Position numbers and translations under genes: made by a program | Part shown: piece by piece, positions 19,626 through 61,485 of the stretch | Numbering within the stretch: the first letter of the stretch is position 1 | Layout of the letters: every line of letters starts with the position of its first letter | Virus record (IMG/VR): IMGVR_UViG_3300016478_000199 | DNA length: 64,000 nt | Source: an uncultured virus (IMG/VR IMGVR_UViG_3300016478_000199) | Lineage: Duplodnaviria; Heunggongvirae; Uroviricota; Caudoviricetes | Direction: 5' to 3' (one strand) | The notes under the pieces: generated by a model | The model's database searches: none | Told to the model about the DNA's origin: nothing | Seen by the model: the letters and a program-made list of their open reading frames with translations, nothing else

Positions 19626-19700
19626 GGGAAAATCCACCTGATTTGACTCAGGTGGATTGTGGCGTCACGACATCATGTGGCTAATGGTGGATGTTGGCTG

Positions 19701-19739
19701 GTGCCTTGGCCTGCGTTACGTCGCGGCCACCCTCGTTTT
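19701..19739. repeat. Repeat copy A downstream of tailspike
   Basis: gtgccttggcctgcgttacgtcgcggccaccctcgtttt; 37/39 identical to 23891-23929. Confidence 0.9.
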
Positions 19740-19759
19740 GGGTAGGGTTAGGTTATTTA

Positions 19760-21571: not shown

Positions 21572-21574
21572 AGA

Positions 21575-21979
21575 TTACTCGCTTGCAGGCCAGGGATACT
21601 GGGCTTGAATCTCTTGGTAGCGCATAGCGCCCAGGTCGCGGCGGGCCTCCCAGTCCGGCTCACCCATGAATTGCATGCGCTGGGCCTCGGCGAAGTAGCG
21701 GTCGCTGCCGTTGACCGGGTCAGCGTAGGCGCGCAGGCGCAGCTGCTCGATCTCGGCGCGGGTCAGCGGCGCGGGCGGCTGCGGGTCAGCCAGGACGGGC
21801 TTGCCCTTGCTGTCGGGCACGATGACCTTGCCAGCATCGCGGCCAGCGCGCAGCGCCAGATACTGTGCGTCGGTCAGCTTGATGGCGTCAGCCGGCCAGG
21901 TGCCGGCCTTCTCGTAATCCGCGCGCATGTCTTCGGGGTAGAAGGCGCCGGTCGTTGCGCTGCAAAAGAACTTGATCAT
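21575..21979 (-). CDS. Tail fiber assembly chaperone
   Basis: FFC.ATTGAFYP...GTWPADA...Y.AL...G..I.PD..G.P.L. Confidence 0.85.
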   Translation of the reverse strand: MIKFFCSATTGAFYPEDMRADYEKAGTWPADAIKLTDAQYLALRAGRDAGKVIVPDSKGKPVLADPQPPAPLTRAEIEQLRLRAYADPVNGSDRYFAEAQRMQFMGEPDWEARRDLGAMRYQEIQAQYPWPASE

Positions 21980-21991
21980 AGCGGTTCCCGG

Positions 21992-23824: not shown

Positions 23825-23890
23825 CGTGTGGGCTACCCTCGTTTTGGTAGAGGGTAGCGTCACGACGATGGGGGCTGATTGTGGATGTTT

Positions 23891-24098: not shown

Positions 24099-25928
24099 TC
24101 AACGATAATTGATTTTAAGTTTGAATGTCCCAGATGTAGCAGTCGTGCCGGTTGTGCTGAAAGACAGGCGACTGCTTGTGCGCAGTGCTGCAACACTAAT
24201 CGGCACTGTGGATTTCCCGCGAACAGGGGACAGCGCGGAAAGATCAACGCTCGCATGCTCTGCTATGTTGGCACTATTGCCGATTCGCAGCGTTCCTGAA
24301 AGCGTGCCGGTCGCCTCTATGATTTCGATGGACTCAATAATCCCGCCGAATCCGCCAGTCGTGACAAGCTCTGTTTCAGAGATATTTGACGCTGTTTGAA
24401 TTGGGCCTGCGATGATTGACTTCCGATTGCCAATGACTTCATAGCCTTCAACGTCAATGACGTTACGCTCGCGTGGGATAAAGTTAAGGGTTGTTGGCGT
24501 GCCCGAGAACTGCCCGGAAGTCTTGTAAAGACCTGCACCGATATTTGTTACGCACAGATTACTAATGCTAAAGTCCTCCATGCTTTGCGTTGCGGCAGCG
24601 GTGCTAAGACGGTAGAGATTGAATAGGTACTCCGTGGGGTGCAAGTCAACTACAAGACCTTTAATGTACCCGCCCTTCAAGCGGCCAAGCAGTATTGCCC
24701 AATCTCGGTTGGGGATTACGCTGGTTGAAGAGTTGCTTATATACCCACCATCCATAGTGAAGCCTTGGACGGAGTATTGTGCTCCGACACTTAAAGGTGC
24801 TTCACACTGCTCCCACTGCATATTTGAAAGCCGAATTGCATTGCAGCTGCCGCCGAGTAGTGCGTCAGGGTTTGCGCCGAATTGCAGGCCCAGCTTGGTG
24901 GACTCCATGACCCAGCTGTCGAAGTGCAAGGCATAAGACCTGCTAACATCAGCTACGCCACCGCTAGAGCCGCCTGACGCTTGAATGCCGGCGAACACAC
25001 CAGCATTCACGTTATCGACTAGCTGCATGCACCAAGAGCCTGCGCCGCTGGAGTTAAGGCGGCAATCTGCCATATACGGACGAACCGATAGCTCTGCGTA
25101 AACAGCGCGTCCACCAGATGACTCTAGCCGGCTGTGCACAACGCTCCAATCCGGGGAGTTCTTAATATACAGCGCATCCCCGCCTGTGTTTTTTAAGAAC
25201 ACTCCGCGCAATGCGTTTCGGCGGTCGGTTATATTTGAATCATTACCGAATCGAACGATTGGCAAGGCCATGTCCGCAATGATGCCCGGATAGTTCTTGC
25301 CAGGGCCATGAATCTCCTGAGTATTTACGAGCTGGATAGTGTCTTCCACATGCCAACCATCAGGATGATATGGGTATGTGATATTTTGCCCTTCGGCCGC
25401 GGCCCTCAAAAATGCCTCGGTGGTAGCTGACGCACCAGCGGCGCCCGGCACTGCTCCCGCGTCCGCAATATCCACGGTCTTTTTCCGTCGCTTCCAGCGG
25501 CCAGTGTGAATAGCTGGAGCCTGAAAGATATTGATCAGGTCTTCATCTTCTTCGCTTGTCGCATCCCAATATAATGAGCCGCCGCCTTGTTCTTGCCCAC
25601 CATTGTAGCTGCGCACTTCAAATTGCTTGTCTTCTTCTTGAGGCTGTAGGAGAAGATCAGCAATACTATCAACCGCCACAACCCCGCGCCCAACCAACCC
25701 CGCCCCCTTCGCCGGGTCTGTAGAGTTGGCAAGGTCGGCACGAGTGGTCGCGTCAGCCACAACGTCAAACGCCTGTTTAAACCGCTTCGCCAGGCTCGGT
25801 TGCGCTGGGTAGCCGGTAACTGGAACGTCGCTGTTCTCGTCGGCAGTCAGGATGCCGAAGGCGCTGCCCTTGGCGTCTTGAAGCTCAGCGACTACGGCCT
25901 GCAGCTCGCTGTACGCATCGGTGCTCAT
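24099..25928 (-). CDS. Tailspike/depolymerase-like protein 1
   Basis: Start MSTDAYSELQ; shared N-terminal anchor; GGG.LYWD, ADAGAV pectate-lyase-like entry; visibly lower-GC body. Confidence 0.8.
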   Translation of the reverse strand: MSTDAYSELQAVVAELQDAKGSAFGILTADENSDVPVTGYPAQPSLAKRFKQAFDVVADATTRADLANSTDPAKGAGLVGRGVVAVDSIADLLLQPQEEDKQFEVRSYNGGQEQGGGSLYWDATSEEDEDLINIFQAPAIHTGRWKRRKKTVDIADAGAVPGAAGASATTEAFLRAAAEGQNITYPYHPDGWHVEDTIQLVNTQEIHGPGKNYPGIIADMALPIVRFGNDSNITDRRNALRGVFLKNTGGDALYIKNSPDWSVVHSRLESSGGRAVYAELSVRPYMADCRLNSSGAGSWCMQLVDNVNAGVFAGIQASGGSSGGVADVSRSYALHFDSWVMESTKLGLQFGANPDALLGGSCNAIRLSNMQWEQCEAPLSVGAQYSVQGFTMDGGYISNSSTSVIPNRDWAILLGRLKGGYIKGLVVDLHPTEYLFNLYRLSTAAATQSMEDFSISNLCVTNIGAGLYKTSGQFSGTPTTLNFIPRERNVIDVEGYEVIGNRKSIIAGPIQTASNISETELVTTGGFGGIIESIEIIEATGTLSGTLRIGNSANIAEHASVDLSALSPVRGKSTVPISVAALRTSSRLSFSTTGTTATSGTFKLKINYR

Positions 25929-25930
25929 TA

Positions 25931-27073
25931 CTATCCTCCAAAGCCCAGCCTGCAGAAATCGCGCAGGATCTGGGACTGTCTGTGAACTTCGCTGATTTGG
26001 TCGGGCGTTGCGTAGAAGCCGAGGTGGCAGCAGACCGCGATCCGGTGGCTGAAGCCGTCCAGATAGCCGTACTCGCACTCACCCTCGTGGGTGGCTACGC
26101 CGCCGTTGTAGTAGGCGATCTGTGCGTCGCCCCCGTAGGTGCGCCGGCCGTTGTACAGGTGGTGCTGAAACACCTCCATGCACATGAACGGGTCTTCCTG
26201 GGTGTCCAGGGAGTCATCTTCCAGTGCGCCGGTCAGCGTGATCTGGCGCAGGTGCGTGCCGCCGGAGCGGAACTTGTCGATCAACAGGCCGACCCAATAT
26301 CTGTACAGCGCGATATTGTCGGTGGTTTCCAGATCCAGGGCGTATTCCACGTCGAACAGGCACCGGACAGGCTTGCCGGTTGTGTTGTAGACGTAGTCGC
26401 CATTGTGCAGGATGCCGCTGCCGTAGGTCGGGAACAGGTCGCCAGGCAACACCACGTCGACGACACGTGACGGCAGCCCGCCGGTGGCCCGGGTAATTGC
26501 GGTCTCGATGGCCTTGTTGTTGTTCCTGGGCGTCAGAACCTCGTAGATGATGCGCGGGCCGTAGGCCTCGTCAGGCTCATCCACGTAGCGATCCACGTTG
26601 TAGTAGCTGCCGATCAAGTCGAGCCATTCGCCCTTGCCGGTTTTCGTGGTCATCTGCCGCAGGGCTTTGTCGATCTGCTGGTTTGCCTCGATCAGCTCGA
26701 CCGACACAGCATCCTGATAGGCCCACTCCAGTGACGTGAAGCCGTACAGGTGGTCGCCATTGGTGCTGAACTGGTCTTTGCTGCCTTCAATCAGCACCCT
26801 AGCGCTCAGGCCAGCATACGCAGCAGGCGGCACCTGAAGCACCGTGTACCCGGTCTGTGTGCCGATAAAGGCGCTCAGGCTTGCCAGGGTGTGCTGCGAC
26901 AGGTCGATCCGCAGGCTGGTGCCGGCACCGCCGGTCACCTGGGTAGTCAGCACCGATTCATCGATGCGCCAGGTCATCGTGCCGCTGTAGCGGAAGCGCA
27001 GGGCGAGGAAAGGCACGGGATCCTTCGAGAATACCCGGTGCAGGTATCTGACCAGCCGCTGGCGCAAACTCAT
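25931..27073 (-). CDS. Baseplate wedge protein (gpI-like)
   Basis: GEWLDLIGSYYNVDR...E.DE.Y..RI; follows baseplate J. Confidence 0.75.
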   Translation of the reverse strand: MSLRQRLVRYLHRVFSKDPVPFLALRFRYSGTMTWRIDESVLTTQVTGGAGTSLRIDLSQHTLASLSAFIGTQTGYTVLQVPPAAYAGLSARVLIEGSKDQFSTNGDHLYGFTSLEWAYQDAVSVELIEANQQIDKALRQMTTKTGKGEWLDLIGSYYNVDRYVDEPDEAYGPRIIYEVLTPRNNNKAIETAITRATGGLPSRVVDVVLPGDLFPTYGSGILHNGDYVYNTTGKPVRCLFDVEYALDLETTDNIALYRYWVGLLIDKFRSGGTHLRQITLTGALEDDSLDTQEDPFMCMEVFQHHLYNGRRTYGGDAQIAYYNGGVATHEGECEYGYLDGFSHRIAVCCHLGFYATPDQISEVHRQSQILRDFCRLGFGG

Positions 27074-28197: not shown

Positions 28198-28251
28198 GGG
28201 AGACCGGATAAGGCAATTTGTGCTTGCGCCATGATGGCGTCACGACAGCCG

Positions 28252-30053: not shown

Positions 30054-30076
30054 GGCTGCAGTGTAGGCTCACGACA

Positions 30077-39302: not shown

Positions 39303-39348
39303 GTTTTGATTGTGGCATCACGACGAGACGTGACGGCATGCTAGGCCT

Positions 39349-44071: not shown

Positions 44072-44115
44072 TTATGTCTTATCCTCAATGGATATGGGTT
44101 TGTGCCTGCCGGCGG

Positions 44116-44751
44116 TTACGAAAGAGCCTTGGCCAGGAGGCCTTGGTCGATCTGTTGGTTTTGACGGAGGGCCACGTCGATGGTGGTCAGCTCCAGTCCG
44201 TTGATCTTGCCAGCACCGAAGGCAGCGGTAGCCTTGGCCAGCACGTCGCCAGCGGTGAGCTGGGGCTGCTGGGACTTGGCCAGCTGCTGCTCGCCAGCGG
44301 CGGGCTTATCGACGACGGTGAGCACGGTCTTGCGGCCAGTGCCGGTGCCAGCCAGCTTGGCCACCTGGCCCTGCAGCGACTTGATCAGCTCGCCTTGGGA
44401 CTTCAGGGTGTCCAGCGTCGAGGCCAATGCCTTGGCCAGCACGCCTTCGTTGGTTTCAACGCGGTCGGACAGGTCAGTCAGCGACTTGATCAGCAGCTCA
44501 GCGTCAACGACCTGAACTTCCTCGTCGCCGATCTTCATGGACTTGGCCATCGGCGCGCCTTCCTGATCGTCGTCCAGCTCTTCGTCTTCGGGGTTAAGCT
44601 CTTCGTCACCCTCGGCAGCCGCAGCAGCGATCTGATCGTCGTCGTTGCCTTCCTCGACCGGCGGCATCGCCTTGGCGAGGGTTTCATTTTCGGCTGCAGC
44701 ACCCTGAAGCTCGGCGAGCAGCTGTTCGAAGTTGTTGTCTTGTTTGCTCAT
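44116..44751 (-). CDS. Putative capsid scaffolding protein
   Basis: Acidic coiled-coil with 8 (L/M)xK(S/A) repeats, between protease and capsid. Confidence 0.7.
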   Translation of the reverse strand: MSKQDNNFEQLLAELQGAAAENETLAKAMPPVEEGNDDDQIAAAAAEGDEELNPEDEELDDDQEGAPMAKSMKIGDEEVQVVDAELLIKSLTDLSDRVETNEGVLAKALASTLDTLKSQGELIKSLQGQVAKLAGTGTGRKTVLTVVDKPAAGEQQLAKSQQPQLTAGDVLAKATAAFGAGKINGLELTTIDVALRQNQQIDQGLLAKALS

Positions 44752-45650
44752 CACGAGCCTCTTTTCTGGAGTGCAGATTTAAGATCGCCCATGAAGCGAT
44801 CCACCCATTCCGCCGCCTCATCTGGCGACAGTCCGAAGTGTTTCACGGAATAGGCAGTAAGGCCGTCCGCCGTGTGTATCTTCGCCTCACGACTTTGAAT
44901 TGCGCGAGCCAACATGTCGCGGAAGCTAAAGTAAGAGTGCGGCGAGCCGGTATCTAAGGACTGCATTCCGAGGGCTGCGCCGCCTGTTTTCATGGCTGAA
45001 TCGGTGGCGTAACTGGCTTCGAGGGCCTTTGCCATGTCGAAGCCATCAGGCGTCCAGCACTTGGCCAGGGCGCCAAACGGAATAGTGCTAACCGGCGACA
45101 CGTGCTGATTTACCGGCTGCTGGCTGATTGCCAGGTTAGACCAGCGAACCTTGGTAACCAGATCAACCGCAGACTTGCTCTTCGGATCAATTACACGAGA
45201 TTTGGCGAGGGTCGCACCACCGACAGAGGCATACCAGCGCTTCGGTGGGTTCAACTTGGTCATCGAGTCCCAGACCATGTTGGCGTTGGCGGCAAGCGGT
45301 GTGTCGCCCTTGTAGAGGCGCGCCTTTACCAGCACCGACTTGCCATCGACGCGAACATCTTCCGGCACGCCGATTTCATGGTTTTGTGACTCGGCAGCAG
45401 ACAGGCCATAGGCCTTGGCAATAACCGGCATCGTCTTGTGGTCGATGTCGATATTCCCAAACTTCAAAAAATGTTCAGCGGAATCTTCCAGCGCCTTAGC
45501 CAGCACGCATTCATTCTGCTGATCTACGCCTTCACGAGCAGCTTCCAGATAGATGAAGCGCTCGCCACCCTCTTCGGAGGGGCGAGCTTTCAGCATCGTT
45601 CCAATGCTCAGGTATTCCGGGGATGCGCCAATGCGCTGCTCTTCGTTCAT
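44751..45650 (-). CDS. Prohead protease
   Basis: A..E.VDQQNE, GNIDIDH, IG, ASVGG (Ser), AIS.QPVN. Confidence 0.8.
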   Translation of the reverse strand: MNEEQRIGASPEYLSIGTMLKARPSEEGGERFIYLEAAREGVDQQNECVLAKALEDSAEHFLKFGNIDIDHKTMPVIAKAYGLSAAESQNHEIGVPEDVRVDGKSVLVKARLYKGDTPLAANANMVWDSMTKLNPPKRWYASVGGATLAKSRVIDPKSKSAVDLVTKVRWSNLAISQQPVNQHVSPVSTIPFGALAKCWTPDGFDMAKALEASYATDSAMKTGGAALGMQSLDTGSPHSYFSFRDMLARAIQSREAKIHTADGLTAYSVKHFGLSPDEAAEWVDRFMGDLKSALQKRGS

Positions 45651-45751
45651 GCGCAAATGTTGTCATCACGACGAGCAGACCTGGGATATGCGAACACAAA
45701 AAAGCCGCCCCGTAGGGCGGCATGAGTAGGCATTGCAAGCAGGAGACTGGA

Positions 45752-46006
45752 TTATGCCAGGGCTTGCCGCGCCTTCGCAACAACCGTATGCAACTGGCCG
45801 CGCTCGGCTACCAAATCAAGATAGCGCTGCTGTCCGGCGTCATCTGCAGCCTCGACGCCCGGGCGCAGCTTGTCCAGTTCGGCATCTACCTGCTGCAGGC
45901 GCTGCTCGGCAGCGGCCAGGATGTTGCGCTCGGCAGCCTCGGTCTTGGCCGCCAGGCCGCCAAGTTCACCCAACTGGACGTGAGCCTTGTCAATGTGAGC
46001 CTTCAC
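45752..46006 (-). CDS. Hypothetical protein
   Basis: 84 aa helical; GTGA overlap; terminator at 45697-45721. Confidence 0.65.
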   Translation of the reverse strand: MKAHIDKAHVQLGELGGLAAKTEAAERNILAAAEQRLQQVDAELDKLRPGVEAADDAGQQRYLDLVAERGQLHTVVAKARQALA

Positions 46007-46266
46007 CGACGCACCTCAGTAAGACACAGCGCCCGCAGGTCTGGCGACTGAATTGCGTAGCACTGCCCAGGCTCGCCCCGGGCCTTCGCCAAGCAATACT
46101 GGCGGGCATCCGCGCTTTGGACGGCGTAGCAACTGCCGGCATCGGCAGCCTTAACCGGCGGGGCGAAGAACGCCATCGCGGCCACGATCAAAATACCAAT
46201 GACAGGCGGAACAAAGTCGGAGTGCAGAAAGCGCATAGCCATTCCCTCTTGGTTTTGGTTGCTCAA
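46003..46266 (-). CDS. Small exported Cys-repeat protein
   Basis: Signal-like segment then two repeats CYA(V/I)QS.D.R..CL; start may be the ATG at 46236 or 46242. Confidence 0.65.
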   Translation of the reverse strand: MSNQNQEGMAMRFLHSDFVPPVIGILIVAAMAFFAPPVKAADAGSCYAVQSADARQYCLAKARGEPGQCYAIQSPDLRALCLTEVRR

Positions 46267-49200
46267 TTATAGCGAAAGCTCGCCATTTTGGGCAGCCTTG
46301 CGACGGGCGCTTATTGCACCAGCAACGCCGGTATCGTCCAGGCCATCCATCGGGTCGGCCATCATGTTCTTCAGGTCATACTTGTTGGTAAGCCGCTGCC
46401 GTGCCCGCGCTTCTTCCGGGTGGTCGCCGACCAGATCAATCAGCTCGATGCCGTTCTTCTGCCCAATGCGGTCGATCCGCGCGTTGCGCTGGCTGTGCGT
46501 CTTGGCCGTCTGGCTGACATCATGCTGGATCAGGTATTGCCCCGATTGCAGGTTCATGCCCACGGCGCCGGCATCAGAGGCAATCAGGATGTCCGCCTGG
46601 GCCTCGCCGCTTTCCGGGTTGAACATCCGGCGCTTCTTGTCCTTATCTGTCGCGCTGTCGCTTCCGGTGATGGTTACCACCCGCTTGCCGGCCTTCTCCA
46701 GGGCAGCCTTGTACTGTTCGATACTTTCCCGGTTGCGGGCAAAGATCACCCCTTGCTTGCCCTCACGCTGCTTCACCAGCTCGATGGCGTGCGCCACCTT
46801 GGCATTGTCCGGGTGCGTGTTGATGATCCGGTTGATGGCTGAAGACTTCAGGATGCCAATCGACTTCTGCAGGGCAGCCGCCACCTTCTCGTGATCTGCT
46901 TCCGGCACGCCCTCGAACGAACCAGGCGAGATCGCCTTGCAAGCCTCGATGTCGACCTTTCCGGCGCGACGCGCCAGGCGGGCATTGGCCAGATTCTTGC
47001 TCAGCTCTGCCAGGGCCTGTTGCTGGCCAGAAGACAGCGGCACGGTCTCCACCTTGCGGTCGCGCTGCACGTCCGGCGTGATGCTGGTCGGGAACATATA
47101 ACGGGCCATCTCACGCTTCAGCGCATCCTTGCTGGCGATGGTGTCAGCGCCGTACCGACGCATGAACTCAGCGCGGTCGGCGTAGCGCTCGGGATCCATT
47201 TTCTGCAGCATGGAATGGATCTCGCTGGGATCGTTCTTTATCGGGTCACCCGACGCATATACGTGGTACGGCGTGTTGTGGCCTACGGCCTCGATGACGT
47301 TGGACAGGCTGGAGTTTTCCTTACCTGCTCGGTTCAGGGTGTCGTGCGCCTCGTCAACGAAACTGGCGTCGAAGTTGATGCCCTCCTTGGCCATCACGTC
47401 GGCAGCCCAAGCCTTGCGCTCTGCCGTTGTCATCTGGGCCAGCTTCTGTGTCATCTGGGACTCGTGGATGCCCGCCTGCTCGGCGCCCAGGTGAATCATG
47501 TCGTCGCGGAAAGACTGGTGCGTCATGACGCAAATGTGGTTATCCGGGTCTTTGTACGCAGCGATCCGCTCAGCCTGGCTGGCGCCCGGCTGAATGTGTG
47601 TCTTGAATTTGCCGGCTTCCAGCAGGCGCAGAGCCTCGCCGTTGAACTGGCCTTGAACAATGCTCGGCACCAACATGATCGAGCGCTTGACCTTGCCCAA
47701 GCCAGCAAGGTGAGCATGGGCGCCAAGCATCATGTTGGTCTTGCCAGAGCCTGCACCGGCGGCCAGCACGACGCGCTTGTTGGCGGCGATCAACTTGATC
47801 GAACGCTGCTGGGCAACGTACTTACCGGACATCGACACGTTCCACAGCTTGGTTGGCTGGCCCGGTTTGAAGTTCTGACCTACGACGCCCATCATGCCGG
47901 CGATCTGGCGCTCAGCTGCGTGACCAAGGCTGTGACGCTCGTCACCAGCCAGCGCTGCAGGCTCTCCCCCAGCCTGTGCCGCCGGGGCTTCCTCGGTAGA
48001 GAAGAACCCCATCTGCGCCTGTTCGAAGGCCGCCTGTTGCTCCTTCGCCTGGGTGATCTTGTCGGAGACGCTGCCGGATGCGTACTTGCCATCCACGCGA
48101 TTGCGCAGGCTATCGACCAGCGCCTTGTCCTTCTCCATCCGAGCAGCGCGCGCAGCAGGGTCTACCGCGTCGAGGTGGTTCAGGTTGTTGCGGATGATTG
48201 CCCGGCCCAGCTTTAACGGTTTGTCCGGGTTCAGCCTGTTGTGTGCGTCAACGAAGGTCTTGGCCACCTTCGAGCGGATCATGTCTTGCACGGCTTCATA
48301 GGCCTTGGCGTTTCCGCCCATGGAAGCCACATACTTGCCCCAGGTCAGTGAGCCGCTATTCAGCTTCTCTGCCAGGTTGTCGCGGTGCGCGCGCCAGTCC
48401 TTCCATTCGGGATTGGCAACGGTGTCGCCAAACATGTCGGTGGTCTCTTTTTCCGGCTCTGCCTTCTCGTGCGCTTCGAGGTCAGCGCGCAGTTGCGCCA
48501 CCTCGGGAGATTCCTTGGCGACGTTGCGGTGAAAGAACTCACGCAAGGCACGCTGATCCTTGTGCCCCAGCTCGCCAATCTGCTTGTAGGCTGCCACGCC
48601 TTCCGGTGTATCCGACAGGGCGCGATGCAGTGCGTCGACAGCTTTCTGGTCGACGGTGAATTTCTGGCGGTTCACCGTAGTGATGTCGCCGCCCATCTTG
48701 CCGACGTAGGCGTCAGCGTATTTATCGAAGCTCTCAGCCAGGGCCTCGGCGCGCTGCTGCTTGCCATTGGCATCCTTGAGCGGTGCAACTTGATCGAGGG
48801 CTTCCCGGTATTCCTTCGCACGATCAGGCCCGACCTTTTGGAAGAAGTCAGCCGACTGGATGTCAGCCAGGATGTCAGCCGCGTGGTCGCCGTCCGCAGC
48901 CCGGCCGCCGATGTAGTCGCGCAAGGACTCGGCCAGGTCTTCGCCAGGGTTGAACGGCTTCGCCAGCTGGGGTGCGACGCCGGGCTTCACGTCCATTACA
49001 AGATCAGGGCGATTAGCCACGCCTAACGGAAGCCAACCATCCTCGTCGTGGTCGCCACGAATGATCGACAGGTTGCGACGAACCTGCTGAATGTCTTCAC
49101 GCGCGACCGGCTTGGCCAGGCGATCCATGCCGCTGGCATGCACAGTCAGAAACGTGTCGCCGGCCACGCGCTCCAGGGTGTAGTCGCCCGGCATCAGGCC

Positions 49201-50808
49201 GATGGCGCGAACCTGCTTGATTGCCTGCTCAGGCCCGGTCTTGCCCAGGGATACCTGCAGGCTATCCTGTTTGCCCTGCTTCAGCGCAACGACAAGAGCC
49301 GCGTTGGCCTCCATTTCTCCAAGCGCTTGTCCGAGGATTCGCTGCGCGTCTCCAATCGCCGCCCGACGCCGGGCATTGAGTTCCTGCGCCACGGCCAGAT
49401 CCGCACCATTCTGCGCTTCCTCGGAAAGTTCAATGGCTTTCGCCGCCTCGGTCAGATCGCGGGCTTTCTTCAGCGCCTCGGTCGACGTTTGCATGTAGTG
49501 GTTGACGTGCCAGTCCTGCATGCCGTCGGCCACGTGTTGAACATCGTCCGGCTGCAGATCGCTGTGCACCCGGCGAGCAAGCACCTGAGCGGCACCAGCT
49601 ATGCCGAGGACGTCAACAACAGATCGATCAACTAGCGCCTCGCCGCCCACGGCCAGGGCCAGGGAGTTGATGCTGTTATAAGCACCCACGCCGATATGGC
49701 CGCCAAGAGTTTCTTCCGGCTTGCCGCCTGCAATCTTGCCTACCTCGGACAGAAAGGCGACGGTCTGTGCTGTACGCAGGTCATTTGCAACCGCTTCACG
49801 TGCCTGGGCGTCAAGGTCTGCATCGCCGGTGGCCTCGATGACAAAGGCTTTCGGCTCGGTAGGCGACTTGTCGATGTCGGCTGCTGCAGCTCTGGCCTGT
49901 TTCTCGATCTCAGCCAGCCGCTTCCCTTCCTTGACCAGATCAAGCGCATCCTTGGCGCTAAGCAGGGTAGCGTCGGCGTTCGGCGCTGCAGGCTCCTTGA
50001 TCCCTTCCAGTTCTTGCTTGATCAGCGCAGCGGCCTGGCCTCGTGCAAAGGCGGCTTGCTTCTGCTCTGGCGTCATCTCGGCCAGCTTGCCCTGCTTGAC
50101 CTGCTGGGCCTCCATGGAAAGCTGCTCTTCGGTCAGCCCACTGGCCTCAGCCCGGCCTTTGTAGTCGGGATTGAAGCCCAAGCCGCTGACCTGCTTTGGT
50201 ACTGGCGCAAGGTCTTGCACAGAAAGCGCTCCGGGTTCCTCGCTGAATAGCGGAACCTCACCAACACCCGCGTCTGCGCGCGCAGCGGCATCGTTGACCA
50301 GCTTTTCCCGGCTCTGCTGAATTACTTCCTTGGCGCGGCTCAGCAGCTTGGCATGGTGGCGCTCCTTAACCTTGGCAAAAGCCTTTTCGGACAGGTGCGC
50401 GTAGTCTTCCTCGGGGAACTCAAGCTCCTTTTCATCCCAGCCGGCCTTCTTGGCCACAGCCTGAATGACTTCCCGCTCAGCCTGGCGCTTCTGTTCTTTC
50501 AGAGCCTTGCGCGCCTCCTGCTTGGCGCCATGGATGCCGGCCGCTTTGTCAGCCTGAGTCTGGGCTTTTTTCTGCTGCCGACGCTCTGCCGCCTTGGACT
50601 CGGCCTCGGCCTTGTATTCGGCCTTGGACTTAACGCCTCGCAGGCGCAGATGGTTGAGACTGCCTCCCGCGCCGCCAATAACCTTTGCTGATCCGTCAGC
50701 TTGCGGCTGGATCAGCACGGGCTGGCCCTTGCCGGTACCGTTCGGGTGAACAGTGATCCAATGGCTTCCAGGCGGTATAGATTTGGCAAGCAGGACAAGT
50801 CTTTTCAT
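46267..50808 (-). CDS. Large SF2/SNF2-like helicase, probable internal head protein
   Basis: AGAGSGKT, VDEAH, ASGDP, SDAGAVGMNLQ, QRNARIDRIGQ; located among head genes with late promoter. Confidence 0.85.
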   Translation of the reverse strand: MKRLVLLAKSIPPGSHWITVHPNGTGKGQPVLIQPQADGSAKVIGGAGGSLNHLRLRGVKSKAEYKAEAESKAAERRQQKKAQTQADKAAGIHGAKQEARKALKEQKRQAEREVIQAVAKKAGWDEKELEFPEEDYAHLSEKAFAKVKERHHAKLLSRAKEVIQQSREKLVNDAAARADAGVGEVPLFSEEPGALSVQDLAPVPKQVSGLGFNPDYKGRAEASGLTEEQLSMEAQQVKQGKLAEMTPEQKQAAFARGQAAALIKQELEGIKEPAAPNADATLLSAKDALDLVKEGKRLAEIEKQARAAAADIDKSPTEPKAFVIEATGDADLDAQAREAVANDLRTAQTVAFLSEVGKIAGGKPEETLGGHIGVGAYNSINSLALAVGGEALVDRSVVDVLGIAGAAQVLARRVHSDLQPDDVQHVADGMQDWHVNHYMQTSTEALKKARDLTEAAKAIELSEEAQNGADLAVAQELNARRRAAIGDAQRILGQALGEMEANAALVVALKQGKQDSLQVSLGKTGPEQAIKQVRAIGLMPGDYTLERVAGDTFLTVHASGMDRLAKPVAREDIQQVRRNLSIIRGDHDEDGWLPLGVANRPDLVMDVKPGVAPQLAKPFNPGEDLAESLRDYIGGRAADGDHAADILADIQSADFFQKVGPDRAKEYREALDQVAPLKDANGKQQRAEALAESFDKYADAYVGKMGGDITTVNRQKFTVDQKAVDALHRALSDTPEGVAAYKQIGELGHKDQRALREFFHRNVAKESPEVAQLRADLEAHEKAEPEKETTDMFGDTVANPEWKDWRAHRDNLAEKLNSGSLTWGKYVASMGGNAKAYEAVQDMIRSKVAKTFVDAHNRLNPDKPLKLGRAIIRNNLNHLDAVDPAARAARMEKDKALVDSLRNRVDGKYASGSVSDKITQAKEQQAAFEQAQMGFFSTEEAPAAQAGGEPAALAGDERHSLGHAAERQIAGMMGVVGQNFKPGQPTKLWNVSMSGKYVAQQRSIKLIAANKRVVLAAGAGSGKTNMMLGAHAHLAGLGKVKRSIMLVPSIVQGQFNGEALRLLEAGKFKTHIQPGASQAERIAAYKDPDNHICVMTHQSFRDDMIHLGAEQAGIHESQMTQKLAQMTTAERKAWAADVMAKEGINFDASFVDEAHDTLNRAGKENSSLSNVIEAVGHNTPYHVYASGDPIKNDPSEIHSMLQKMDPERYADRAEFMRRYGADTIASKDALKREMARYMFPTSITPDVQRDRKVETVPLSSGQQQALAELSKNLANARLARRAGKVDIEACKAISPGSFEGVPEADHEKVAAALQKSIGILKSSAINRIINTHPDNAKVAHAIELVKQREGKQGVIFARNRESIEQYKAALEKAGKRVVTITGSDSATDKDKKRRMFNPESGEAQADILIASDAGAVGMNLQSGQYLIQHDVSQTAKTHSQRNARIDRIGQKNGIELIDLVGDHPEEARARQRLTNKYDLKNMMADPMDGLDDTGVAGAISARRKAAQNGELSL

Positions 50809-50831
50809 GGAGCTATTCTGGGGTCACGACG

Positions 50832-51989
50832 CTAACCCAGCGTCGCGCGCAGCCAGTCTCCAAAATCCTTGTCATCGCCTGGCGCATCTTCAAGAACCGG
50901 AACCCAGCGCCCCCTGCAATGGGGGTGTGCCAGACCGGCTGGGAGATGATACAGCTCATCAGGCGTTCTCGGAACAAGAACCCCACCCACTCGCTTCATT
51001 GGTGAAGCCGAACGCCCGACGTTGTTCTTCCCCACCCAGATCATGGTGTCGGGATCTTTGTCGGGATGATCAGGGCTGACCACCGTGGCGACGACATCAT
51101 GAATCTTGCGGCAAAAAGCGCATGCGTCCTGATACTGCTCGACGCGCCGCACCTTGGTTCCCGGCTCAAGGGCTGCAATGAACCCTTGGGTCTGTGCCTC
51201 GCCAGCTTCGGTCACCGCTATGCGTCGCCAGTCACGGTTAAGGGTGGCGAACTCGTCAAGCAGCTTACTCTGCAGGGTCTGGCCAGGGGCGCCTGGCGCT
51301 TTGGTTTGCTCATCCTGCAGGTGCTGCACGATGGTGCTGCGCATCCGGTGCCTGACGGACTCGGTCAAGGCTCGCACGTTTTCAGCTGTCCGCACCTTGG
51401 CAAACTCAAGCACCGCCCTTTCGCGGGCCGGCAGGTTGAACTGGCTGGTCGCGCTGCCGACAGTGGATGGCAGGGCCTGCAGAATCTTGTCAGCCACCTT
51501 GCCGGTCATGATGGCCACCGCTGCAGCCTCCATGTTCGCCTGCACCTTGCCCATTAGGCTGGCTCGGGTGCTGAGCCATTCGGCCTCTGTGCGCAGCTCG
51601 TCAGCCGGCATGTAGCGCTGCACAACGTAGTCTACCGCCATCATGTGATCATCCAGCGACCATTGCGCCGGCGGAAGGCTTTCGAGGTACAGTTTGACCA
51701 GCGACAGTTCCGCCTCAGTCCAGCGCTCCATCATGCCAGGCCGAGTCACAGGCAACGTGGTCGGCTTGTGGTGCGATCCAGACTCCCAGGCCAGCAGCTG
51801 CTCTTGAACAGCGTCCAGGCGGTCAAGTCCTCGCTTGGTGAATAGCTCGACCAGGCGACGGATCAGCGGCGACTCGTGCGGACGCCAAATACCATCACCA
51901 CCGTGGTCGTGAGTTGACTTAAAAATGTACTCCAGCGCGGCATTCGTCGTGCGCTCGGACAGCGGGTAGATGTCAAGAAATAGTGCCAT
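50832..51989 (-). CDS. Head morphogenesis protein (SPP1 gp7/Mu F-like)
   Basis: RDWRRIAVTE, CAFC...HPHCRG. Confidence 0.82.
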   Translation of the reverse strand: MALFLDIYPLSERTTNAALEYIFKSTHDHGGDGIWRPHESPLIRRLVELFTKRGLDRLDAVQEQLLAWESGSHHKPTTLPVTRPGMMERWTEAELSLVKLYLESLPPAQWSLDDHMMAVDYVVQRYMPADELRTEAEWLSTRASLMGKVQANMEAAAVAIMTGKVADKILQALPSTVGSATSQFNLPARERAVLEFAKVRTAENVRALTESVRHRMRSTIVQHLQDEQTKAPGAPGQTLQSKLLDEFATLNRDWRRIAVTEAGEAQTQGFIAALEPGTKVRRVEQYQDACAFCRKIHDVVATVVSPDHPDKDPDTMIWVGKNNVGRSASPMKRVGGVLVPRTPDELYHLPAGLAHPHCRGRWVPVLEDAPGDDKDFGDWLRATLG

Positions 51990-52233
51990 GGGGTGACGGT
52001 ACGCTCACGACTGGAGAAGGACGCCCGGCCGGCTGCAATAGCCAGCAACCGGCCAGGACTTCCCCGATACGACTACCGGCTTCCATTCCGGCTCAGGGCT
52101 GCGCTCTCAGCTTTGCCTGCTGAATCGCGTTTCCGCGTCCAAACCACGAGCCGCGCGCGGTGGAAATTGCCCCGGCCATTTAGCCCTGGCCAGGCCCTGC
52201 CAGGCTTTCAGGGGTATGCTGGGCGTGAGAAGG

Positions 52234-52545
52234 TCACTTGTGGACGCCCTTGATCTGCTGAGGCGTCAGGTGCAGGCGCTCGGCCCTGGCTTCCGGTGGA
52301 ATGCCCAGGTAACGGCGCTTGCCGTGTTGGTTCTCGACGATAATACCGTCTTCGCCGTGGTGTAGCACCTTGTAACTCTGCTGCGTGCGGCTTTTGTGGC
52401 CGGCAATGTGCTCCCACTTCAGCTTGTGGCGCTCGCCTTCATGCTCGACCGTGCAGCCATGCCGGCCAGTGCACAGGACTTTTCCGCACTTCGGCTCACC
52501 CTTGTGGTGAAAGAAAACTTCGTCGCCAGGGTATGCACGGCTCAT
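52234..52545 (-). CDS. Hypothetical protein downstream of portal
   Basis: 103 aa, SH3-like beta pattern PGDEVFF...GKV...GRHG. Confidence 0.6.
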   Translation of the reverse strand: MSRAYPGDEVFFHHKGEPKCGKVLCTGRHGCTVEHEGERHKLKWEHIAGHKSRTQQSYKVLHHGEDGIIVENQHGKRRYLGIPPEARAERLHLTPQQIKGVHK

Positions 52546-52572
52546 GTCAAAACCCTTCGTATTCTTCGCTCA

Positions 52573-54288
52573 TCACAGTTCCACCCGCCACACGGGGAGG
52601 CCAAAGCTCTTTTGCATGTCCTCGCCATTGTCTTCGGCAGGCTCTTCATCCTGCTCGCCAGGCTGCTGACCTTGCTCTTCGCCTTCAGGCTGGCCTGGCT
52701 GATCCTGCTGCCCCGGCTGACCGCCGAACTGGCCGCCAGGCGCGTCCGGGTTGCCGTAGTCTTCACCTTGGCCCTGCTTGCTCTGCATGTAGGCGCCCAT
52801 CAGGTTCTGGTTGAGCGGTGCGTCGCCCCAGTCCTCTTCGATCTCATCCCAGCCACGCGCTTTGCGAGCCTCGTTGACCTTGCACAGTGCCTGCTCTTCA
52901 ATCCAGGCCTGTTCCGGCGTCATCTCGTCGAGGCCAGTCCAGCGGAAAACGTATTTATCGCTGAAGCCGGAAACAATGTAGTCGCTGAACAGGTCTTCGA
53001 AGTGCGAAAGCAGCGGGCGCAGACCCTTGTCCTTCGAGTTGATCAGCTTTTCTTCAGTGTCACTGCCAGACAGCGAGCTGGTGCCGGCGGTGAAGCTCTC
53101 AAAGTTGATCTCGTCCGGGGCGATGCCGTAGATCGCGCAGATGATCGAGGTCAGGAACGTCATCCACTTGGCGAACATGATCTCGTCGACGTCGACGCCG
53201 AACTTCTCAAATGCCGCCTTCGACTCGCTGTTCTTGGATACCATCACCGGCAGCGACCAGGCATTGTTGATGCCCTTGACCATGGCGTTCCAGTAACGCT
53301 TGAAAGCATTCAGATCCTGTTCGGCATAGTCGCCAGACAGGTGCAGAAGTCCTTTCGGTATCGAGTTGCTGTCAAAATACTTCAGGTTGTAGGTCATGGC
53401 GTTGAGGAAGCCGGTGACCACCTTCACCAGCAGTTCGACCTCGCTCATGCCGTAACCGCCGACCATGACGTCGGTGCGTGGGTTGCGCGGGACGTAGATC
53501 AGATCGTCGTAGGTGTAGGCTGCGCGGATGTTCCCCTGAACCACCTGCAGGGCGTACAGCTCGTCATCGCCACGGTATCCCTCTTCGCTGCATAGACGGA
53601 TGGTTGCGCCGTCCACCGCGTAGAAGCCGTCAAGGCCAAGGCGTCGGTCACGCTTCCACTCGGTCTCGATAGGCGAGCTGTCCAGGGTCAGGCTGTCGCG
53701 CACCATCTTGGCCATGAAGCCAGAGAAGTTATCGCGCTTCAGTCGCATGCGCTGGCGCGGGTCTGACTCCCAGCCGCAGTTGGTGAAGAAGCCTTCCAAC
53801 AGCTGGATTGACTGCTGTTCGCTCTTGCCCAGCTTGGCGGCTGGATCACGCGGCTTGATGGCAAAGCCAGGCCCTTTGCCCGATTCCTGTACCCGGCAGA
53901 AACGCTTGATCTGGCGCTGGCGGGTCATGATCACGGCAGACAGGATTGGCACCTGATCGACCATCATCCGCAGCATGTCGAAATTGAACGCACCAGGGCG
54001 CTCGTAGTATTCACCGAGAAGCTGAATGCGCCGATCATCGAGATAGACCGACTGCATGCCCGGGGTGCCGTTCTTGATCGCCATGCTTGGGTACGGGATC
54101 GCGTTCGGCTTGGTCAGCGCCTTGGTCAGTTCTTGCTCTTCATACTGACGCTGCATGAACTCCACGAATGGCAGCATATCCGCCACCGTAGACGGCAAAG
54201 CATCCTGCTGAGCAACACGCATGGCGTCGCGCTGCTCGTCGGCAGGCGCTGCAGGGTTATGGGCAACTTCGATGGCTTTATCGGTCAT
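52573..54288 (-). CDS. Portal protein
   Basis: RDSLTLD, VDGATIR, GYG.SE.E, YF...SIPKGLL, ICAIYGI.P.EI, GLRPLL, VNEARK..G. Confidence 0.92.
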   Translation of the reverse strand: MTDKAIEVAHNPAAPADEQRDAMRVAQQDALPSTVADMLPFVEFMQRQYEEQELTKALTKPNAIPYPSMAIKNGTPGMQSVYLDDRRIQLLGEYYERPGAFNFDMLRMMVDQVPILSAVIMTRQRQIKRFCRVQESGKGPGFAIKPRDPAAKLGKSEQQSIQLLEGFFTNCGWESDPRQRMRLKRDNFSGFMAKMVRDSLTLDSSPIETEWKRDRRLGLDGFYAVDGATIRLCSEEGYRGDDELYALQVVQGNIRAAYTYDDLIYVPRNPRTDVMVGGYGMSEVELLVKVVTGFLNAMTYNLKYFDSNSIPKGLLHLSGDYAEQDLNAFKRYWNAMVKGINNAWSLPVMVSKNSESKAAFEKFGVDVDEIMFAKWMTFLTSIICAIYGIAPDEINFESFTAGTSSLSGSDTEEKLINSKDKGLRPLLSHFEDLFSDYIVSGFSDKYVFRWTGLDEMTPEQAWIEEQALCKVNEARKARGWDEIEEDWGDAPLNQNLMGAYMQSKQGQGEDYGNPDAPGGQFGGQPGQQDQPGQPEGEEQGQQPGEQDEEPAEDNGEDMQKSFGLPVWRVEL

Positions 54289-54384
54289 ATTGGGGAGCCT
54301 AGCGTCACGACATATTTTGCGGCTGGCGCTTGTATTGAATAAGCATTTTTGATTACCATCGCCGCCGGCATGAGGTTACACTAA

Positions 54385-56704: not shown

Positions 56705-56802
56705 GCTCAACCTGTTGCAATACTCTGTTTTGATCAACTATTATTTGATTAAGCCGCGAAAACGGCTCAACCACCCGACGAATACTTAAGCAGGAAAGGA
56801 AA

Positions 56803-57726: not shown

Positions 57727-57771
57727 CCATCCACCTTCCCGGCTTCGGCCGGGCACTCACCGAGACAGAAC

Positions 57772-58412: not shown

Positions 58413-58675
58413 GCCAGTCCCGCCGCGCCTCGGCCATCGAGGCGATTGTCAACGTGCTGATCGGCTACTGGGTTGCTGTCATTGCCCAGGCTGCCATTTT
58501 CCCAATCTTCGGCTTTCACGCCAGCACCAGTCAGCACATGGCCATCGCCGGGCTGTTCACGGTGGTCAGCCTGCTGCGCAGCTATGTTCTTCGGCGCGTG
58601 TTCAACTGGTTCACCCGGCGAGCAGCGTCGACATCACTGCAAAACTCAGCTATCACACCCGCGAAAGGGGATTGA
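58409..58675 (+). CDS. Small 2-TM phage protein
   Basis: MSQSRRAS.IEA..NV.IG...FT.VS..RSY..RR.FN. Confidence 0.75.
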   Translation: MSQSRRASAIEAIVNVLIGYWVAVIAQAAIFPIFGFHASTSQHMAIAGLFTVVSLLRSYVLRRVFNWFTRRAASTSLQNSAITPAKGD

Positions 58676-58677
58676 CC

Positions 58678-58863
58678 ATGGAATACCTGGGCAAATTACT
58701 GTTCGGAGTTGGCGGCGCAGTCCTGCTTTACGCTGCGTATATGGCCGTAAAGCTGTCCGACAACGTACAAAACAATGCCGAGCACATTTTCATTCCGGCC
58801 ATTGCCCTGTTTGCTGCTGCAGCTGCAGCAGAGCTGATCTGGGGCGACCGCGACCGCGCCTGA
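58678..58863 (+). CDS. Small membrane protein
   Basis: MEYLGKLL..., two hydrophobic segments, AGGGG RBS. Confidence 0.55.
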   Translation: MEYLGKLLFGVGGAVLLYAAYMAVKLSDNVQNNAEHIFIPAIALFAAAAAAELIWGDRDRA

Positions 58864-61458
58864 TCACTCCCGTGCGATAAATGCCCAGCAGCCCGGATCT
58901 GCTGGGCGCACCTTGTAGCCGTTTTCGTTGCACATACCCGTGTCCGGGTCAAAGCTGGCGCAGCAGCGGCAAATCTCTTCCCGCGACACTTCCAACTGCT
59001 CAAGCACCGAAACGATCTCTTCCGGCACCTGAATATCCGTCGGGCTGAGCGGGCGCGTCGGTGCCTGCTGCACCTGTGGCAAGATGAAAGTGCTGGTGCC
59101 ATGGGCGCGTGACCAGGCTACGTCGCAGAGCATGTTGGCGTAGCTGAAGTGCGGGTCGATACCGACCTTCTTAACGCTGCGCTTGTACTGGTTGGTCTCG
59201 TCGTCCTTCTCGGCCACCAGGGCGGTCTTGGTGAAATGGTGGAACACCCTCGGGAGAACCGCCACGACTTGCTTCTGCCCCTTCTCCAGCACCTCCTGCA
59301 CCAAGCCCTGCGGGTCAGGGAACAGGCAGGTAGGAATGTCGGTGGTGAACCGGCTCATGCTCACCTGCATGCACTTGTACTGATCCATGCGCAGGGTGAA
59401 GCGATCCTGCGCCTCTTCATCAGTGCGTCGGTCGGATGCGTTCTGCTTTGGCGTGTCGCCCCAGTGAATCATGCCGTCGGCAACGCTGCCAAAGCTGTTG
59501 CATATAAAGACCTTGCCCGGGTGGCGCTGGGCAAACTTCTTGGCGTCGTTGTAGTTCGGGTTGATCTCGACCACGCAAACCGAAACGCCGTACAGCTCCA
59601 TCAGCTCGCTCGATCTGGCGAACGGGTCGGCGCTGTAGGTTTCCTCGACGTGGATCACGGCCTGGCGTCCATCAGGCAGGCGCTCCTTGATCACGTGCAC
59701 GTTGAAGTTACCCATTTGGTCGATGCCCATAAACGTGCCGCGTGCGCGGGACTTCCAGACGACGCCAGCCTGCCGGCCAGCCTCGACACAGCGCGCCAGG
59801 TGCTCCAGCGACACAGGAACCTGCGACGGGTCGAGATACGGCTTGCCCAGCTTACGGTTGAAGAAGTTCTTCATGTCCGTAGCGGTGTTGTAGGCAAACA
59901 TGATGTCGCCAGGGCTGATCGTCGGCGACAGGAACTGCGGGAAGTGGATCGAGCGGATAGGCGATTCCCCGCGCTCGTTCTCTGGCGCGTCTGCAATCCA
60001 CTCGCCGCGCTGCGGATCATCGATCCAGCCACTGCAGCTGTGGCAAACGTAGCGGTGGATCTCCTGTTCGGCGTCATACCGGATGCAGTCTGGGAAATAC
60101 TCATCCAGCGGCTTGCGCGCCAGGCAGTGCGGGCATTCCGTGTGGAAGCGGAACTGGCTGCCGCGCTTGTACCAGTGGTGGATGTCGGCATCAGGCCAGT
60201 TGGCCGTCGAACCCATCAGGGTGTAGCGGATCGCGGAAGCAGACAGACGCTCACGTGTCTTTTCCATCTGCTCCAGGGTCATTTCCTGCACCTCGTCGAA
60301 GGACAGGATGTCCATCGGAATCGACTCGGTGGTGGCCCGGCCAGACGTCCAGCTGAACACGAACATGGCCTCGCCAATACGGCGGGTTCGCACGTTACCT
60401 TCGCCAACCTTGCGGCCACTGCCATCCGGCGCGTCCATGGTCATCAGCCGGTGTACGTCGGGCACAGTTCGCACGATAGGCATGAAGCGCTCAGATGACT
60501 TCAAGCCGGCCAGGTTCATGTCGGGCAGGAACATACCGACGGTCGCAGGCTGGAACTTCAGTCCAAGGAAAATCACCGCCAGCATCTCCATGACGGTGAA
60601 GCCCACCTGGGCGCACTTCATCAGCACCAGCGTCTTGCGGAATGCGTCATCGACGGTGCTTGGGATCTGGTCATAAATCCACGCCATCGCCGGACGGTCA
60701 TCCAGACGGAACGGGCGACCGTCCACCTTCAGGCCTTCATCACCCAGCCGCACGCACCACTGCCGGAAGGTCTCGTCGCGGCCGATTACGCGCATTGATG
60801 GCGTCAGCTCGATGGCGACATCCAAGAACTCGGCCCCGAACCGCTGCCGGTATTCCGGTTCGGTCGCAGCCAGCATGTCTGCCTGGGTTTCCTCGGGCAG
60901 GTGCGGGTTGCACTCCGAGCTGAACTGCCAGCACGACCAATCCTCATCGAGCAAGCCCTGCTGGAACATGCGGTAGAAGTCGTTCTTCTTGCCATAAGCG
61001 CCAGACAGGAACCATGCCTGGCCCTGCTGCTCGCGGATGCACTCGCTCAGGGTGTCCTCGAAGGCTGACAGGAAGTCCGGCACGTGGCGCACGTCGTCTA
61101 CCACGATCAGTCCGTATTGCGGGAACGCCTTTGGCAGATCGTCGAATGAGTAGAAGTCGATGGCGTTGCCGTTCAGCAACTGCAGGCGCCGTGAGTTCAC
61201 CTGTCGCTTGATGAATGGGTCAATCGCGCGCTTGATGATGCGCTTGACCTCGGTCAGATCATCCTTTTTCGGCGAGAACCAGGCGACAGGCGCCTTGCCG
61301 GAAATTGCGCCGTGACTAGAAGCAATCAGCACCTCGATGCCAAGGGTAGTCTTGCCGCCTTTCTCCCCCATGCACACGGCATTGAAGCGGCTGGCCTTGG
61401 ATAGGATCTTTCGCTGTACGGGGTGCGGCGCCGGGAGGCGTATCTTGAGTTCTGGCAT
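58864..61458 (-). CDS. Terminase large subunit (GpA-like) with an extra N-terminal terminase-like ATPase domain
   Basis: LMKCAQVGFT, LSFDEVQEM, CPHC/CHSC, FFN..LG.PY, MGIDQ nuclease motif. Confidence 0.88.
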   Translation of the reverse strand: MPELKIRLPAPHPVQRKILSKASRFNAVCMGEKGGKTTLGIEVLIASSHGAISGKAPVAWFSPKKDDLTEVKRIIKRAIDPFIKRQVNSRRLQLLNGNAIDFYSFDDLPKAFPQYGLIVVDDVRHVPDFLSAFEDTLSECIREQQGQAWFLSGAYGKKNDFYRMFQQGLLDEDWSCWQFSSECNPHLPEETQADMLAATEPEYRQRFGAEFLDVAIELTPSMRVIGRDETFRQWCVRLGDEGLKVDGRPFRLDDRPAMAWIYDQIPSTVDDAFRKTLVLMKCAQVGFTVMEMLAVIFLGLKFQPATVGMFLPDMNLAGLKSSERFMPIVRTVPDVHRLMTMDAPDGSGRKVGEGNVRTRRIGEAMFVFSWTSGRATTESIPMDILSFDEVQEMTLEQMEKTRERLSASAIRYTLMGSTANWPDADIHHWYKRGSQFRFHTECPHCLARKPLDEYFPDCIRYDAEQEIHRYVCHSCSGWIDDPQRGEWIADAPENERGESPIRSIHFPQFLSPTISPGDIMFAYNTATDMKNFFNRKLGKPYLDPSQVPVSLEHLARCVEAGRQAGVVWKSRARGTFMGIDQMGNFNVHVIKERLPDGRQAVIHVEETYSADPFARSSELMELYGVSVCVVEINPNYNDAKKFAQRHPGKVFICNSFGSVADGMIHWGDTPKQNASDRRTDEEAQDRFTLRMDQYKCMQVSMSRFTTDIPTCLFPDPQGLVQEVLEKGQKQVVAVLPRVFHHFTKTALVAEKDDETNQYKRSVKKVGIDPHFSYANMLCDVAWSRAHGTSTFILPQVQQAPTRPLSPTDIQVPEEIVSVLEQLEVSREEICRCCASFDPDTGMCNENGYKVRPADPGCWAFIARE

Positions 61459-61485
61459 GCTGCAATTTTGCAGTCACGACATGCC

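Follow-up and report, generated by a model that had tools for sequence, protein, structure and literature searches.

We analysed a 64,000-nucleotide stretch of DNA from an uncultured tailed virus (IMG/VR record IMGVR_UViG_3300016478_000199; the whole stretch is called the window), in which the heptamer GTCGTGA recurs ahead of late-type genes, exactly 3 nt before a -10-like hexamer. We are highly confident, given its conservation, that the pattern GTCGTGA-N3-NANNNT represents the late promoter of myoviruses related to Bordetella phage PHB04, and a 174-aa zinc protein of these phages, here called b, is the likely activator. Taken as a whole, the proposed reading (a late promoter with leaderless and hairpin designs at its first genes, and b as an activator tied to the host beta clamp) has in our estimate a probability of about 0.65.

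The pattern GTCGTGANNNYANNNT has 10 exact matches in the window, every one on the minus strand, compared to a mean of 0.09 and a maximum of 1 in 100 dinucleotide shuffles, and a GACGTGA variant adds one further site. An earlier note on this DNA had listed these eleven sites, and all of them lie where it placed them and carry the hexamers it gave; a twelfth copy, GTCGTGA-ggc-GAAGAT, was absent from its list (Table 1). The exact 3-nt spacer was also borne out, as GTCGTGA-Nk-YANNNT occurs 10 times at k = 3, once at k = 0, and not at all at k = 1, 2, or 4–8. The bare heptamer is mildly enriched in the window (15 observed; ~8.8 expected), and four copies that lack the hexamer lie in called genes (21016, 51906, and 19076–19082) or within an open reading frame (ORF) at 24099–26078 (24358). 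The signal in the window is heptamer and hexamer together, not the heptamer alone. A reading of the heptamer as a half-site for CRP, which is TGTGA, was rejected: the core is CGTGA and a second half is lacking. The genes behind the sites code for terminase, portal, protease, an SF2 helicase, and a 385-aa core protein, and include the divergent pair 39302/39349, two baseplate-region operons, tail fibres, and lysis genes. The earlier statement that each site precedes a packaging, structural, or lysis gene is correct for most of them, but 50808 (the SF2 helicase), 51989, and 39349 (the latter two without a named function) lack structural evidence.

Table 1. Predicted promoters and associated features in the window.
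Feature	Position	Strand	Remark
Predicted late promoter, lysis operon (holin ATG 19625, endolysin 18595–19308)	19656..19671	-	leadered
Predicted 11-bp hairpin over holin Shine-Dalgarno sequence (AGGTGG), read-through RNA	19631..19658	-	-17.8 kcal/mol, z -6.1
Predicted late promoter, 148-aa ORF (ATG 23824) and tail-fibre genes	23851..23866	-	leadered
Predicted 9-bp hairpin over GAGGG Shine-Dalgarno-like sequence	23832..23858	-	-16.2 kcal/mol, z -6.9
Predicted late promoter, baseplate wedge gene (ATG 28197)	28231..28246	-	predicted 27-nt leader, weak Shine-Dalgarno sequence
Predicted late promoter, 394-aa virion protein	30060..30075	-	predicted leaderless, ATG 30053
Predicted late promoter, 278-aa protein, first gene before sheath, tube, and tape measure	39309..39324	-	predicted leaderless, ATG 39302
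Predicted divergent variant promoter (GACGTGA), 271-aa core gene	39327..39342	+	predicted leaderless, ATG 39349
Extra copy with GAAGAT hexamer, within 3' end of protease gene	44878..44893	-	123 nt before ORF 44754, then major capsid gene
Predicted late promoter, head maturation protease	45657..45672	-	predicted leaderless, ATG 45650
Predicted late promoter, 1513-aa SF2 helicase	50815..50830	-	predicted leaderless, ATG 50808
Predicted late promoter, 385-aa core gene without named function	51996..52011	-	predicted leaderless, ATG 51989
Predicted late promoter, portal	54296..54311	-	predicted leaderless, ATG 54288, 7-nt spacing
Predicted late promoter, terminase large subunit	61465..61480	-	predicted leaderless, ATG 61458
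80-aa Cro-like helix-turn-helix protein, core gene	8929..9171	-	second-ranked activator candidate
TGATCAAA/TACTCAAA quasi-palindrome	2795–2802, 9212–9241, 12194–12201, 16699–16706, 56729–56751		in the window

The window is part of a temperate PHB04-like myovirus, the cultured relatives of which have genomes of 86–96 kb. Scans with PHROG and Pfam profiles revealed primase, helicase, single-stranded DNA-binding protein, integrase, holin, endolysin, tail fibres, baseplate, tape measure, sheath, capsid, protease, portal, and terminase. The capsid protein is 82–86% identical to those of PHB04 and Aeromonas phage ST4, 67–74% to those of Jeremy, Dolphis, ECML-606-1, phiT5282EW, and fHe-Yen8-01, 38–42% to those of Touem01 and Mecenats66, and 33% to those of the Thermus Lalka phages.

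The strict pattern is present in 5–10 copies in each of 8 of the 9 cultured relatives and in none in Mecenats66, where we saw a few degenerate sites only and recognised no late motif of another kind; the reversed pattern, which served as our control, gave 0 matches. The motif is unchanged across phages of alpha-, beta-, and gammaproteobacterial hosts. A matrix of 100 family sites showed flat composition upstream of the heptamer, in keeping with the earlier remark that no -35 element is evident, along with a spacer preference for Y-G-S and a -10 in which only A-11 and T-7 are fixed, G-14 being favoured. The pyrimidine said to lead the hexamer is found in the 10 window copies, but family-wide the first base is not always Y (C57, T16, G19, and A8 in the 100 sites). 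Pattern scanning of IMG/VR returned at least 123 stretches; among the 80 loci that we examined, 72 belong to the clade (68 open a clade-homologous ORF and 4 lie in clade DNA) and 8 lie outside it. A scan of GTDB gave a single locus.

Leaderless mRNA is uncommon in gammaproteobacteria. At the eight positions for which the earlier note predicted it, the ATG does follow the hexamer, by 6 nt at seven sites and by 7 nt at the portal gene. These genes also lack a Shine-Dalgarno (SD) sequence, as claimed: their pairing energies with the anti-SD range from +0.7 to -3.1 kcal/mol vs. -2.4 to -11.1 kcal/mol for 24 other genes in the window. With an AUG start, no SD, and no clearly better start codon downstream, all eight combine the features expected of leaderless mRNA, and their homology with most relatives begins at residue 1–5. 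For the family as a whole, genomes and loci selected without regard to ATG supplied 235 distinct sites; these belong to related phages and are not independent. The ATG lies at offset 6 after the hexamer in 82 of them, at offset 7 in 30, and at any other offset from 0 to 24 in at most 8; at 105 of the 112 sites with ATG at 6–7 it opens an ORF of at least 80 codons, while GTG or TTG starts a long ORF at this offset in 1 of the other 122. The ATG found 6–7 nt downstream of the motif in PHB04 is the annotated start of 8 genes. Leaderless initiation in Escherichia coli favours AUG (PMC9031893). Taken together, the eight window sites very likely give mostly leaderless mRNA. Conservation, fixed geometry, restriction to AUG, absence of an SD, and homology from about residue 1 strongly support the promoter and the leaderless start as first proposed, but not the activators named with them.

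Leadered sites are commoner in enterobacterial members of the family, and at some of them the predicted start coincides with an ORF of two codons. The protease promoters of ECML-606-1 (L024/L022, 34491) and fHe-Yen8-01 (L026, 3726) have ATG TTT TGA at this position, and the protease gene has its own start further downstream, with an SD; the mini-ORF could be either a remnant or regulatory.

It is very improbable that the heptamer is a repressor operator, or that the element is a signal for translation or RNA processing instead of a promoter. Although a site between -35 and -10 is the classic position for a repressor, there is no -35 to repress here, and the rigid 3-nt spacer, the fixed A-11 and T-7, the orientation strictly with the genes, and the preference for A at offset 6 even without ATG (54 of 122 sites) all argue for a promoter.

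Some of the leadered sites point to a second design. The predicted transcription start at the holin site (19649) falls inside the 5' arm of an 11-bp hairpin, and at the 23824 site the 5' arm of a 9-bp hairpin lies upstream of the predicted start (23844). Since the predicted start is inside or beyond the 5' arm, the SD-hiding hairpins would be absent from the promoter's own transcript. ST4, ECML-606-1, fHe-Yen8-01, and PHB04 have hairpins of other sequence at the holin position, some with a U run. Across the family, hairpins with z < -2.5 (mononucleotide shuffles) were found at 29 of 122 leadered vs. 6 of 113 leaderless sites. In phage T4, hairpins that hide the ribosome-binding sites of genes e, soc, 49, and I-TevI are cut by late promoters (PMC3014915); a start inside the 5' arm of such a stem is predicted for 2 of the 4 leadered window sites. 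Leaderless start and hairpin may thus be two designs that restrict translation of the first gene mainly to its own late transcript.

Which protein reads the heptamer? The earlier note put forward a TraR-like protein (17038), a zinc-finger protein (54385), and a helix-turn-helix (HTH) protein (61486) of the window. None is a core gene (6, 2, and 2 of 9 genomes, respectively), and we consider it hardly credible that any of them is the activator. The TraR-like protein matches a DksA-like PHROG (E 1.9e-7), and DksA-like proteins act on RNA polymerase, but its gene is missing from motif-bearing ECML-606-1 and fHe-Yen8-01, and from 9 of 9 satellite loci described below; 61486 has no match in PHROG or Pfam. 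Profile scans of the window and the core genes, which did not extend to the relatives' non-core genes, revealed no sigma-like protein. Two core genes without named function were left as candidates, coding for the 80-aa HTH protein and for b.

That the HTH protein binds GTCGTGA and activates the late genes is improbable. It is a core gene, one Atlas row for it is CII-like, and its recognition helix, R[AS]TP[DN]RW, is nearly invariant among 118 homologues gathered by protein search and altered in motif-less Mecenats66. However, the profile search itself accounts for part of this conservation, and the 9 satellite loci gave no profile match to the protein, with one marginal tblastn match (L338, E 0.003). 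Moreover, a TGATCAAA-type palindrome that is enriched between genes overlaps the HTH gene's own promoter and is missing from Mecenats66; it would suit a Cro-like dimer better than the asymmetric heptamer. The HTH protein therefore more likely binds a separate palindromic operator. This second family motif, a quasi-palindrome of TGATCAAA/TACTCAAA half-sites, is intergenic in the non-virion part of the genome, and is probably the operator of the 80-aa HTH protein or of a repressor.

The zinc protein b is a previously unannotated core gene product (Dolphis 66689–67213; PHB04 gp072) with a finger of the invariant form CxRC...RL...CxSCxNRxxE and, behind it, a basic stretch. All 8 relatives compared encode it, as do 27 of 27 additional contigs that were picked for their motif or portal; conversely, the motif was found in 39 of 39 b-bearing records. 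Its homologues make up 1163 clusters. The protein ends in QGELF, QGDLF, or QLRLW, and a QxxLF-like C-terminus (Qxx[LMI][FWL]) is shared by 91 of 120 homologues; among 812 conserved ORFs the same motif occurs in 13, 7 of which are b itself. The structure model (pLDDT 92; pTM 0.75) found nothing in the PDB at E ≤ 0.001, its own family only in BFVD, and a best Z of 2.6 among 48,161 chains. By sequence, b has no Pfam or PHROG family, nothing in the PDB below E 0.17, and unnamed clusters only in the Atlas.

Plasmid records with a b homologue number 43, of which 42 are enterobacterial (among the 40 matches listed, the small ones are 7.5–14 kb), and a search with a satellite form of b yielded 53. We read 8 plasmids and 2 metagenome contigs of this satellite-like type (10 loci, 134 kb), and tested 9 of them (L225 left out) for 27 helper families. 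The loci read contain no capsid, portal, large terminase, or sheath genes. The sole helper family in 9 of 9 loci is b, while the tape measure is found in 5, the small terminase in 4, and neither the HTH protein nor gene c, a Cys-rich neighbour of b in the phages, in any. The 10 loci hold 26 promoter copies at spacer 3 vs. at most 3 at any other spacer, that is, 1–4 copies per locus vs. 0.03–0.2 expected for each, none of them leaderless; four control plasmids, satellite-like with a related helicase but without b, have 0 copies. A motif copy stands upstream of b, and on its strand, in L238, L239, L335, L339, and G024. The G024 locus (44000–53094; L342) is an island beside an unrelated prophage, where one promoter copy stands upstream of an operon that ends in an HTH-b fusion. 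The C-terminal clamp motif was absent in 4 of 4 satellite forms of b checked. A low-confidence single-sequence model of the satellites' coiled-coil protein gave no fold match.

These elements (L223–L225, L227–L239, L335–L339, and L342) are 8–27 kb plasmids or islands with a primase/helicase, a serine recombinase or integrase, a small terminase-like gene, often a helper-type tape measure, a b homologue, and 1–4 helper late promoters. L335 carries blaCTX-M-14 and L338 carries blaTEM-1. Three other small plasmids (L348, L349, and L350) with tape measure, baseplate, or small terminase genes have neither b nor the motif, and are probably satellites of other phages. The 112-kb Rhodovastum plasmid NZ_OW485606 (L226) is a clade phage filed as a plasmid; it encodes a homologue of b and holds the motif 14 times.

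We propose the following mechanism. Host RNA polymerase with its housekeeping sigma would read the minimal -10, and the missing -35 would be made up for by an activator from the phage that binds the asymmetric heptamer, at roughly -22 to -16. Transcription would start 6–7 nt after the hexamer, usually at A; at about half of the sites this A would begin the AUG of a leaderless mRNA, and at a good part of the others the start would lie within the 5' arm of a hairpin covering an SD or ending read-through RNA. We regard b as the most likely activator, a view in which we have reasonable confidence. Through its C-terminal QxxLF-type motif it probably attaches to the beta clamp of the host, as has been shown for MuC; if b is the activator, this coupling is somewhat favoured over its absence.

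Several points weigh against this assignment. The expected position of b is beyond the window, some 4–7 kb to the left of its start, and b is known from relatives, not from this phage. It adjoins a probable replication origin and could be a replication factor, and its fold is unlike any known from DNA-binding proteins. In Mecenats66, b is present (36% identity) yet the sites are few and degenerate; the substitutions in its finger occur in a minority of other homologues and are not diagnostic, leaving covariation with motif loss unsupported, and we rejected it as an argument. Inside the clade the motif is accompanied by each of the core genes alike, which leaves the satellites as the one source of discriminating data. 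Here, 1 of the 26 promoter copies sits in an IS903B gene, the controls are only 4 plasmids of 43 kb in which few chance copies are expected anyway, and the satellite elements have a common coiled-coil late gene and may descend from one acquisition.

It is conceivable, if unlikely, that promoter and leaderless starts hold while b is only a co-factor, a replication factor, or a satellite decoy, and that the heptamer is read by the product of gene c, by a factor from the host, or by a sigma in modified form. In each cultured relative that was checked, the b gene adjoins a region of origin-like repeats and overlaps c, which has a weak match to an antiterminator Q-like PHROG (E 0.042), and clamp-type motifs are common in replication proteins. 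On the other hand, c is absent from 9 of 9 satellite loci, the same motif serves phages of alpha-, beta-, and gammaproteobacterial hosts, and the motif copies ahead of b in the five loci named above are expected of a late-type autoactivator. Building on b as the activator, one can envisage a monomeric zinc-finger activator with a fold outside the PDB that, bound at -22 to -16 and tethered to the clamp, couples leaderless late transcription to replication across this alpha/beta/gamma phage family, while 8–27 kb plasmid satellites use a b without clamp motif to switch on helper late genes without helper replication, and swap in their own tape measure and small terminase. As a joint claim, this picture is speculative and rather unlikely to hold in every part.

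Our literature searches, which did not cover supplements and subscription papers, so that a prior description is possible, returned no description of the promoter, of zinc protein b, or of the satellite family, and the main text of the Mecenats66 paper uses the words 'promoter' and 'motif' 0 times. The role of b as likely activator and the link to satellite elements are new here. They name a testable activator candidate for the promoter of a phage family that is widespread and has hardly been studied; activator and promoter would form a compact, orthogonal pair that is likely to work in many proteobacteria. Leaderless translation across a regulon (portal, terminase, and protease) would provide natural substrates for its study in gammaproteobacteria, and 'non-mobilizable' enterobacterial plasmids with the promoter are probable phage satellites, which would explain their movement.

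Two large genes and a sequence gap deserve mention. The 1513-aa SF2 helicase (46267–50808), with its predicted late leaderless promoter between the portal and protease operons, is encoded in PHB04 and not in most cultured relatives, and is possibly a packaged anti-restriction protein. In ST4, an 1177-aa gene (L015:3422–6955) that is kept in most relatives, with a late promoter ahead of it in several, has a weak ADP-ribosyltransferase match at its end (E 0.013). A run of 187 N at 11939–12125 falls on the end of an AAA ATPase gene and has no bearing on the motif.

The late promoters of phage P1 that depend on its activator Lpa also need the host protein SspA. By its architecture, the window promoter works like these promoters and is not a member of their class. 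P1 likewise has about 11 dispersed late promoters (PMC10695390), for which record NC_005856 shows a -10 hexamer with a box around -22 and gives no -35 annotation, an arrangement also found here; the LPpac hexamer, TACCCT, is that of window site 23851. However, the P1 box is a 9-bp inverted repeat (PMC10695390) and that of the window is an asymmetric 7-mer, and box and hexamer are 4 nt apart in LPpac and 9 nt in LPhot as annotated, compared to 3 nt here. The two P1 promoters examined, LPpac and LPhot, are leadered. Phmmer searches for an Lpa homologue among ORFs of at least 45 aa from the window and 8 relatives gave nothing at E ≤ 10. Because it has neither an inverted repeat nor an Lpa homologue, we do not class the window promoter with those of P1.

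Promoter and activator are, judged by sequence, not those of Ogr, Mor, or gp55. Ogr of phage P2 acts at sites near -55, and delta of its satellite P4 works without helper replication. Delta is a homologue of Ogr, the helper's late activator (PMC8628076), and a satellite that carries an activator homologue together with helper-type late promoters is also what we see here, as a co-occurrence pattern only. In the satellites, an operon headed by the promoter often contains b, which in one case follows a coiled-coil gene. Unlike P4, the elements here are mostly plasmids, several with a helper-type tape measure gene, and neither b nor its satellite forms matched the Ogr/Delta zinc-finger domain (PF04606) in Pfam. 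P4-like satellites have psu, sid, alpha, and epsilon as core genes; the satellite proteins scanned here had no match to Psu or Sid.

Mor, of the MuC/Mor family, reportedly binds an inverted repeat centred at -43.5. MuC is a late activator that acts with host sigma70 and has Qx[DE][LM]F clamp-binding motifs, through which it draws on the beta clamp for late transcription (PMC12867686). The likeness to b is a clamp-type motif, at the sequence level only; b does not match the Mor family, and Pfam, PHROG, PDB sequence, and fold searches gave no Mor domain or fold in it.

The Thermus phage Lalka27a has sixteen late promoters with a distinct -10 and mapped starts 6 nt after it, mostly leaderless and including one divergent pair (bioRxiv 10.64898/2026.04.20.719267). 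It resembles the window phage in its distantly related capsid (33%) and in late starts 6 nt after the -10, often leaderless, as are predicted here, but its consensus is TAGGGT with a C at -25, the part of the report available does not mention GTCGTGA, and we found no b homologue in Thermus phages. Phage T4 uses its own sigma gp55 with the consensus TATAAATA, unlike that of the window, and the hairpins here are predicted from sequence only; in T4, the ribosome site of a lysis gene becomes free when late transcription begins within the 5' arm (PMC3014915), as is proposed for the holin site.

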